64,000 nt of DNA, from NCBI RefSeq assembly GCF_001677475.2, contig NZ_CP015229.1; one strand, 5' to 3'. The notes beneath the pieces were generated by a model. That model ran no database searches, was not told the DNA's origin, and saw nothing but the letters and a program-made list of their open reading frames with translations. This stretch comes from Escherichia coli (lineage in GTDB: Bacteria; Pseudomonadota; Gammaproteobacteria; Enterobacterales; Enterobacteriaceae). The translations under genes and the position numbers were made by a program. Positions 59,489 through 60,844 of this stretch are shown here, piece after piece. Within the stretch, counting starts at the first letter, position 1. Each line of letters opens with the position of its first letter.

Positions 59489-60844
59489 ATGGCGCGATTC
59501 CAGTTTAAAAGCCGTAAAAATAATGGGTTTATTTTTTTAATAAGTTTTATGGTGATGGGAGAAGCTACAATTGCTGCACCGCTGCCACAATGGGCGAACG
59601 CCCCAGCGGTAACGCCAGTTGCCCGATTATCTTTACAGGAAAGTATATTACGCGCCTTTGCGCGAAATCCCGACGTCACTCAACAGGCGGCGCAGATAGG
59701 TATTGGCGAAGCGCAAATTGATGAAGCCAAAAGTGCCTGGTATCCGCACGTTGGATTAACCGGCAATGCGGGACCGTCCCGACAAACGGACTCCAGTGGC
59801 AGGCTTGATAACAACGTTTCGTATGGCATAACCCTGACACAGCTGGTGTATGACTTTGGTAAAACTAACAACGATATCAAACTGCAAACTGCCGCCCGTG
59901 ACAGCTACCGCTTTAAATTGATGGCAACATTAACCGATGTTGCAGAGAAAACGGCGACTCCCTATATGGAAGTCAGTCGTTATCAGGCTTTGTGCGATGC
60001 GGCTCAACGCAATATTCACTCGCTGGAAAACGTCTACAACATGGCGGCATTGCGCGCTAACGCTGGCCTGAACTCATCGTCGGATGAATTACAAGCCCAG
60101 ACGCGCATTGCCGGAATGCGCTCAACGCTGGAGCAATATCAGGCGCAGATGGCGAGCGCTAAAGCACAACTGGCGGTGCTCACTGGCGTACAGCCGGAGG
60201 CGATAGCCGCGCCACCTGCTGAATTAGCCGAGCAGCCGGTATCGCTGAAAAATATTGATTACCAGTCCATCCCACTGGTGCTGGCGGCAGAAAACTTACG
60301 CCAGTCAGCACAGTACGGTGTGGAAAAAACGAAAGCGCAATACTGGCCAACGCTCAGTATTCAGGGCGGCAAAACGCGCTACCAGACCAGTGACCGCTCG
60401 TATTGGGACGATCAGTTACAATTGAACGTTAACGCGCCGCTGTATCAGGGCGGCGCAGTTTCAGCCCAGGTGCAACAGGCTGAAGGGCAACAAAAAATCT
60501 CTGCCTCGCAGGTCGAACAGGCAAAACTGGATGTGCTGCAACGAGCGTCTGTGGCATATGCCAACTGGACAGGCGCACGGGGTCGCGAAGAAGCCGGTTT
60601 AGCACAATCCGAAAGTGCGCACAAAACGCGAGATGTGTACCAAAATGAATATAAATTGGGCAAACGCAGTCTGAATGATCTATTAACCGTCGAGCAAGAT
60701 GTCTTTCAGGCGCAATCGGCTGAAATAAATGCCAATTATGATGGCTGGGTCGCCGCCGTAAATTATGCCGCTGCGGTGAATAACCTTATTCCATTAGCGG
60801 GAATTAAACAGGGCTTATACAACGACTTACCCGACTTGAAATAA
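59489..60844 (+). CDS. TolC-family outer-membrane efflux protein, likely dedicated type I secretion OMP (451 aa)
   Basis: RBS GGAAGGAAG; signal peptide (MARFQFKSRKNNGFIFLISFMVMGEATIAAP); two-repeat OEP-like architecture with motifs such as RSLNDLLTVEQDVFQAQ; not part of the K-12 backbone at this position. Confidence 0.85.
   Translation: MARFQFKSRKNNGFIFLISFMVMGEATIAAPLPQWANAPAVTPVARLSLQESILRAFARNPDVTQQAAQIGIGEAQIDEAKSAWYPHVGLTGNAGPSRQTDSSGRLDNNVSYGITLTQLVYDFGKTNNDIKLQTAARDSYRFKLMATLTDVAEKTATPYMEVSRYQALCDAAQRNIHSLENVYNMAALRANAGLNSSSDELQAQTRIAGMRSTLEQYQAQMASAKAQLAVLTGVQPEAIAAPPAELAEQPVSLKNIDYQSIPLVLAAENLRQSAQYGVEKTKAQYWPTLSIQGGKTRYQTSDRSYWDDQLQLNVNAPLYQGGAVSAQVQQAEGQQKISASQVEQAKLDVLQRASVAYANWTGARGREEAGLAQSESAHKTRDVYQNEYKLGKRSLNDLLTVEQDVFQAQSAEINANYDGWVAAVNYAAAVNNLIPLAGIKQGLYNDLPDLK

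Follow-up and report, generated by a model that had tools for sequence, protein, structure and literature searches.

The TolC28 orthologue encoded ahead of a giant BapA-related adhesin in Escherichia coli: a probable dedicated outer membrane channel of a LapA/BapA-type secretion system

Why would a TolC-family outer membrane protein be encoded directly in front of the gene of a giant adhesin, and which secretion machinery would it serve? The question is raised by one end of a stretch of 64,000 nucleotides of Escherichia coli DNA (contig NZ_CP015229.1 of RefSeq assembly GCF_001677475.2; hereafter the window), in which the gene of such an outer membrane protein (OMP) occupies positions 59489..60844 and is followed by the 5' part of the adhesin gene siiEA. 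All window features described below lie on the plus strand. A previous sequence-only reading had seen here a locus-encoded TolC-family OMP that comes first in its locus, lies directly upstream of its substrate gene and resembles the channels of Lap/Bap-type systems. Comparison with family models and structures and a knock-out had been named as checks on this view, and homology to efflux channels of the resistance-nodulation-division (RND) type with an adjacent pump, or absence of expression, as grounds for abandoning it. Our analysis leads us to propose, with a probability of roughly 0.85, that the OMP is orthologous to TolC28 and, as the dedicated outer membrane channel of a type I secretion system (T1SS) of the LapA/BapA type, exports and anchors SiiEA.

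The OMP gene is an intact open reading frame (ORF) of 451 amino acids with an ATG start, preceded at a distance of 10 nt by the Shine-Dalgarno-like purine-rich run GGAAGGAAG; the closest in-frame stop on its 5' side is at 59456, 33 nt upstream, and there is no alternative start upstream. The protein contains two OEP repeats (PF02321; Pfam, E 9.6e-47), which represent an internal duplication. It scores 413.4 bits with the NCBIfam model TIGR01844 (type_I_sec_TolC; curated cut-off 225.15), covering profile positions 3-412 of 414, whereas its scores with TIGR01845, the NodT subfamily of RND-type lipoproteins (93.8 bits, cut-off 210.05), and with NF007002, the equivalog model of housekeeping TolC (64.5 bits, cut-off 495), stay below the respective thresholds. 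The AlphaFold monomer model, built from 25 homologues with a mean predicted local distance difference test score (pLDDT) of 81.7, displays per protomer four β-strands (residues 87-101, 104-121, 288-299 and 304-315) and long helices at residues 125-191, 197-232, 321-389 and 395-429. When this model was compared by Foldseek with the structures in the PDB, the best matches were the TolC proteins of E. coli, Salmonella and Klebsiella (entries 1ek9, 2xmn and 5bun; E ~1e-22, template modelling score 0.66-0.74). Both the family models and the fold comparison are thus in line with what the sequence-only reading had expected.

An alternative view would be that the OMP is a drug or metal efflux outer membrane factor of the OprM/CusC/NodT type that merely adjoins an adhesin gene. 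OprM is indeed its top phmmer match among PDB sequences, with 58 bits slightly over TolC with 49 bits, and in the Foldseek comparison the model likewise matches OprM, OprN and CusC strongly, although they rank behind TolC. However, the 94 bits reached with the NodT model fall far short of its cut-off of 210 and contrast with the 413 bits reached with TIGR01844, and the protein lacks a lipobox cysteine: its sole cysteine is residue 169 and residues 1-168 contain none, so that a lipid anchor is not expected. In addition, no RND, major facilitator superfamily (MFS) or efflux-adaptor gene lies beside the OMP gene, whose neighbours are copA, glsA, ybaT, siiEA, a T1SS ATP-binding cassette (ABC) transporter gene, an HlyD adaptor gene and cueR. 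The linkage of the channel gene to adhesins with a BapA_N domain is conserved in other genera, and the knock-out of tolC28 has an adherence phenotype (PMC12758282). Since the family models, the ranking of folds and the missing lipobox all favour TolC, they outweigh the phmmer ranking of OprM, and the OMP belongs to the TolC/type-I-secretion subfamily and not to the NodT/OprM lipoprotein subfamily. An RND-efflux identity was rejected on the NodT score, the neighbouring genes and the absence of a lipobox, and we consider this alternative effectively refuted.

The N-terminus of the OMP carries a Sec signal peptide (residues 1-29, window 59489..59575), called by rule-based inspection of hydrophobicity, by a scan for small residues at positions -3 and -1 and by the conservation of the junction in homologues. 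It consists of a basic n-region (MARFQFKSRKNNG) and an 11-residue hydrophobic core (FIFLISFMVMG) and has small residues at -3/-1. The predicted signal peptidase I cut, TIA|APLPQW, follows A29. Signal peptidase I tolerates no proline at +1, and in 13 diverse homologues an A or S precedes the invariant AP(L/V/A)P, with A, S, G, T, V or L at position -3; cleavage is for both reasons placed at TIA|AP rather than at TIAA|P. The earlier suggestion of a signal peptide with an AxA-like TIAAP site was thus essentially right, except that the homologue alignment moves the cut one residue towards the N-terminus.

Sequence and position identify the OMP as the orthologue of TolC28 (Z0608), which is encoded in O-island 28 (OI-28) of E. 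coli. Of its 451 residues 443 are identical, and eight different, to those of the protein encoded at the same ybaT-cueR position in O157:H7. The channel is therefore already known, both from annotation by the Prokaryotic Genome Annotation Pipeline (PGAP) and from a dedicated experimental paper (PMC12758282). This study, published in Gut Microbes in December 2025, describes OI-28 of enterohaemorrhagic E. coli (EHEC) O157:H7 as an island with five annotated genes, namely tolC28 (z0608), rtxA28 (z0609), rtxB28 (z0615), hlyB28 (z0634) and hlyD28 (z0635). Single deletions of each of these genes, tolC28 included, reduced adherence to Caco-2 cells and colonisation of mice, the tolC28 deletion was complemented, and RstA and Ca2+ were found to activate the locus (PMC12758282). 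The knock-out that the sequence-only reading had called for thus exists for the O157 orthologue, and its phenotype together with the complementation implies that chromosomal tolC is no substitute for tolC28. Expression is documented for O157 as well (PMC12758282, PMC2907692); array data show RpoS dependence of Z0608 (55-fold) and of Z0609 (20-fold) (PMC2907692). The window allele resembles TolC28 of EDL933 in its position on the ybaT side of the ybaT-cueR interval, in gene order, in length and in an exact RstA box, but it belongs to another E. coli lineage and its eight changed residues include a private A158P exchange.

Purifying selection acts on the gene: the ratio of nonsynonymous to synonymous substitution rates (dN/dS) is 0.07 in the comparison with the O157 allele and 0.13 in that with the allele of LD67-1 (range 0.05-0.13). 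Conservation extends to both ends of the mature protein, that is, to the N-terminal APLPxWAxAP (window 59576-59605) and to the C-terminal LP(D/E)L (window 60827-60841), in which L447, P448 and L450 are invariant in 25 homologues of 55-99% identity. The C-terminal tail is conserved despite being disordered in the model. Both ends may serve as contact motifs.

The presumed substrate gene, siiEA, starts 102 bp downstream of the OMP gene and is represented in the window by 1018 codons (60947..64000) without a stop, being cut by the window end. The encoded sequence scores 506 bits with the model NF047714 (adhesin_SiiEA; cut-off 425), for whose E. coli member NCBI uses the name 'BapA-related adhesin SiiEA', and is 97.4% identical at the amino acid level to the corresponding part of a 6925-residue protein of LD67-1. 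Residues 5-132 (window 60959..61342) match BapA_N prefix-like models (PF22783, 66.7 bits; NF033677, 71 bits) and make up a candidate retention plug. AlphaFold predicts residues 1-123 as a compact β-rich domain, with pLDDT values mostly of 79-93 for residues 1-120 (one block at 73); from residue 124 onwards the values drop below 50. This domain is followed by a Gly-rich hydrophobic segment, PWGWLAGAAVGGGALGALLASGGDG (residues 131-155, window 61337..61411), which is disordered in the model and in which W132, G137, A138, G141, G142, G146, L148 and G153 are invariant in seven homologues; it is a candidate for a stretch threaded through the channel. Past this N-terminal region the protein is built of tandem Ig-like repeats stabilised by Ca2+ (Ca_tandemer, 703 bits; Big_13; Big_6). 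A protein-database search with the SiiEA N-terminus returned nine fragments only, mostly from E. coli, and the homologous adhesin N-termini compared here were taken from fetched loci.

In O157:H7 one in-frame TAG, at codon 1462 (25842-25844 of the retrieved O157:H7 locus), divides the adhesin ORF, so that the part before the TAG comprises 1461 amino acids; the corresponding site of the present allele lies beyond the window end. RtxA28 (Z0609) and RtxB28 (Z0615) represent the two halves of what is one ORF of 6925 amino acids in LD67-1. The N-terminal half retains BapA_N, and the C-terminal half should, by its position, hold the secretion signal.

The remainder of the locus is provided by orthologous loci. 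On the upstream side the OMP gene is the first gene after ybaT, at the end of the conserved E. coli backbone dnaX...copA, glsA, ybaT, and siiEA comes next. In the orthologous complete locus the island between ybaT and cueR consists of exactly four genes, those of the OMP, SiiEA, an LssB-type ABC transporter and an HlyD adaptor. The complete locus of LD67-1 encodes a single adhesin of 6925 amino acids with a T1SS_VCA0849 target domain at its C-terminus, followed by an ABC transporter of the LssB subfamily (TIGR03375, 837 bits, cut-off 693), an HlyD-family adaptor (TIGR01843, 328 bits) and cueR; in island strains the stop codon of the adaptor gene overlaps the ATG of cueR (ATGA). Among 5426 complete E. 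coli genomes, 958 (~18%) carry the OMP gene, in single copy and always on the chromosome. Homologues of 55-80% identity are widespread in Enterobacterales; JGI calls those of ~61% identity 'adhesin transport system outer membrane protein'. The OMP gene is located directly 5' of a giant adhesin gene with a BapA_N domain in Salmonella enterica, Budvicia aquatica and an Enterobacter, too, and these pairs sit at unrelated chromosomal sites. The recurrence of this order in these genera identifies 'OMP first, adhesin second' as a conserved cassette. What had been noticed in the window alone, a locus-specific TolC-family channel in first position, the substrate gene directly behind it and a general resemblance to Lap/Bap systems, is hence borne out by the ORF at 59489..60844 (413 bits with TIGR01844, 25% identity to K-12 TolC), by the start of siiEA 102 bp downstream and by the BapA_N prefix, the Gly-rich segment and the LssB-type transporter of the orthologous locus.

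How might such a channel work? We suggest that the OMP precursor is exported by the Sec pathway, cleaved after A29 and assembled in the outer membrane as a TolC-like trimer, which would dock with the LssB-type ABC transporter and the HlyD adaptor that the island itself encodes. The resulting complex would export the giant Ca2+-binding Ig-repeat adhesin SiiEA with its C-terminus first. Secretion would most likely stall at the end, when BapA_N forms a folded plug whose size keeps it from passing the channel; the Gly-rich segment would remain threaded through the OMP, making it exit duct and anchor at once. Transcription would start within the 337 bp that precede the OMP gene and contain the RstA box, and would probably read through into the adhesin gene. 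LapA provides the precedent for the retention step: its N-terminal retention module stalls secretion so that the adhesin remains threaded through LapE, and LapA occupancy of the channels blocks other substrates (10.1101/198937). The anchor role, which is not discussed in PMC12758282, appears most likely to us because SiiEA shares the layout of LapA, with a β-rich domain, a Gly-rich segment and repeats in this order.

Several points weigh against this proposal, besides the phmmer ranking of OprM discussed above. The island contains neither lapG nor lapD, so that the half of a Lap system that regulates release is missing. The sequence TAAG formed by T97-A98-A99-G100 of SiiEA (window 61235..61246) is identical to the dialanine cleavage motif defined for LapG (10.1101/198937) and stands almost at the position it has in LapA, but it is absent from the adhesin homologues of Salmonella, Budvicia, Enterobacter and Apirhabdus. 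The AlphaFold model of SiiEA residues 1-190 found no match in the PDB by Foldseek at E <= 0.001; a 63-column β-roll piece of the T1SS lipase LipA came closest (E 0.2), and a sequence search of residues 1-248 against PDB chains gave chance-level matches only (E >= 0.13). As the model was computed from a shallow alignment of seven sequences, which limits this structural test, a retention-module fold of the SiiEA N-terminus is left unconfirmed by the structure search. Moreover, the window stops within siiEA, so that for this strain the intactness of the adhesin, the ABC transporter and the adaptor is assumed from the orthologous loci. Finally, codon 158 of the OMP gene (59960-59962) specifies proline, inside the long helix 125-191. 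All other E. coli alleles compared, including those of a 1,709-member cluster, of O157 and of LD67-1, have alanine at this residue, and A158P may reflect either a mutation private to this allele or an error in sequencing.

Some of these points would be explained as well if the OMP were an exit duct only and SiiEA were released, or held at the surface otherwise, with BapA_N playing another role. The lack of lapG and lapD in the island, the unconserved TAAG and the N-terminal model without a significant match to a solved structure all agree with such a view, as does the situation in O157:H7, where the TAG parts the 1461-residue N-terminal piece from the part expected to carry the secretion signal and adherence is reported nevertheless. 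Yet BapA_N and the Gly-rich segment have both been conserved in different genera, in an arrangement that matches the LapA-like retention module, transporters of the LssB/LapB type are described as dedicated to retained adhesins (10.1101/198937), and adherence requires that the adhesin be attached to the cell. A duct without anchoring function therefore seems unlikely to us.

The TAAG at residues 97-100 was considered as a working LapG site and set aside, since the motif is unconserved and the island lacks lapG and lapD. It is probably not functional here and is treated as a chance occurrence or a relic, with cutting by a different protease being possible. A more far-reaching, and rather doubtful, extension of the anchor proposal would be that the TolC28-type channels of Enterobacterales are permanent anchors, constituting a variant of the Lap system that is independent of LapG/LapD, uses BapA_N as a plug and has no release switch. 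Under such an arrangement the E. coli-specific TAAG 97-100 might be cut by some periplasmic protease, and the conserved ends of the OMP would contact the plug or the adaptor.

Is the locus equipped for expression? The region between ybaT and the OMP gene (59152..59488) comprises 337 bp, is AT-rich (37% GC) and is 97.9% identical to its O157:H7 counterpart. It contains the terminator hairpin of ybaT (59163-59185 plus T-run), followed at 59195-59208 by the RstA box TAATTCAAATTACC, an exact copy of the published box at -294 relative to the ATG of the OMP gene. This sequence occurs once in the window, with 0 occurrences expected by chance, and was mapped at -294 to -280 in O157 (PMC12758282). The hexamers ATGATG (59307-59312) and GTGTATTCT (59330-59338) are similar to the -35/-10 prediction of BPROM reported for O157. 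The spacer between the OMP gene and siiEA (60845..60946, 102 bp) is identical to that of LD67-1 and differs from that of O157 at two positions; it contains no terminator-like hairpin on the plus strand, and an AGGAA ribosome-binding site is located 7 nt ahead of the adhesin ATG. These features fit co-transcription of the two genes. A scan of positions 58900-61200 against Rfam matched no family at E <= 1.

The distribution of the island raises the further question of whether it was gained or lost. The ybaT-cueR spacer of K-12 (2870-2993 of the retrieved locus) is no clean empty site: the first 28 bp correspond to the left flank of the island (window 59152-59179) and end inside the ybaT terminator hairpin, and the last ~97 bp match the 3' end of the HlyD adaptor gene (LD67-1 locus ~4204-4303) at ~90% identity and with a 1-bp indel, so that the sequence directly upstream of cueR in K-12 is leftover adaptor gene. 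Of 5426 complete E. coli genomes, 4459 (82%) have the same junction. From this scar we conclude that the island-less state is derived from the island-bearing state, and that the comparison of sequences points to loss of the island by one deletion rather than to gain by O157; PMC12758282 speaks of acquisition of the island instead.

Could the OMP gene of the present genome then be the decaying remnant of a system that is being lost? That the island is replaced by a deletion scar in 82% of the complete E. coli genomes, that a stop codon splits the adhesin gene of O157, that A158P falls in helix 125-191 and that the window does not include the remainder of the locus would all be in keeping with decay. 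However, the ORF is of full length with dN/dS values of 0.07-0.13, the promoter region, the RstA box and the spacer are conserved, and the first 1018 codons of the adhesin gene are open. We thus regard decay as improbable and favour a functional channel gene.

The backbone part of the window differs from other genomes in its own right. Positions 1-59488 (lon...ybaT) are at best 97.8-99.0% identical to any of the 5,426 complete E. coli genomes, which shows that the window derives from an E. coli lineage poorly represented among them. The HigA-like antitoxin gene ybaQ, which lies between ybaP and copA in K-12, O157 and LD67-1, and in LD67-1 is accompanied by a RelE/ParE toxin gene, is absent at window 53914-54158; ~465 bp of O157 sequence are missing there, and only repeats resembling repetitive extragenic palindromic (REP) elements are left.

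Taken together, the evidence suggests that ~18% of complete E. coli genomes possess one T1SS that is independent of housekeeping TolC, and that its dedicated channel bears on the adherence of EHEC O157:H7 and related pathotypes. The deletion scar upstream of cueR and the origin of the 'two RTX proteins' of O157 from a single gene may be of help in further work on this locus.

How does the OMP compare with known systems? With the housekeeping TolC of K-12 (b3035) it shares the fold, the two OEP repeats, the NCBIfam subfamily and a signal peptide of the signal peptidase I type, but it is only 25% identical to this protein over 396 amino acids, is 42 residues shorter and has conserved ends of its own; by its sequence it is a deep paralogue of housekeeping TolC. 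The likeness to LapE, BapB and SiiC is judged by locus and description. Like SiiC of the siiABCDEF locus on Salmonella pathogenicity island 4 (SPI-4), the OMP is a locus-encoded TolC-like protein serving a giant adhesin with Ig-like repeats (PMC6272769), and the name siiEA was coined by analogy. However, the MotAB-like siiA/siiB are absent from the E. coli island, which argues against an SPI-4 type system, and the adhesin is related to BapA.

The system of Salmonella BapA (bapBCD) is similar in that its substrate carries the BapA_N prefix domain, and an OMP homologue of Salmonella enterica with 69% identity likewise precedes an adhesin with BapA_N. The secretion genes of the classical bap operon are reportedly located downstream of bapA. 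The E. coli island differs in having the OMP gene first, and the Salmonella locus found here is siiEA-like and is not shown to be bapABCD.

From the LapEBC/LapA system of Pseudomonas fluorescens the E. coli island differs in gene order, in the absence of lapG and lapD and in the lack of conservation of the dialanine site. On the other hand, LapE is likewise a dedicated TolC-like channel linked to a giant repeat adhesin. SiiEA has the LapA-like succession of an N-terminal folded domain, a Gly-rich linker, which we liken to the poly-Gly linker of LapA, and repeats. The ABC transporter is of the LssB/LapB type, and LapB-type transporters form a subclass dedicated to retained adhesins (10.1101/198937). 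If the OMP does anchor SiiEA, anchoring without LapG/LapD would be a modest extension of this known mechanism.

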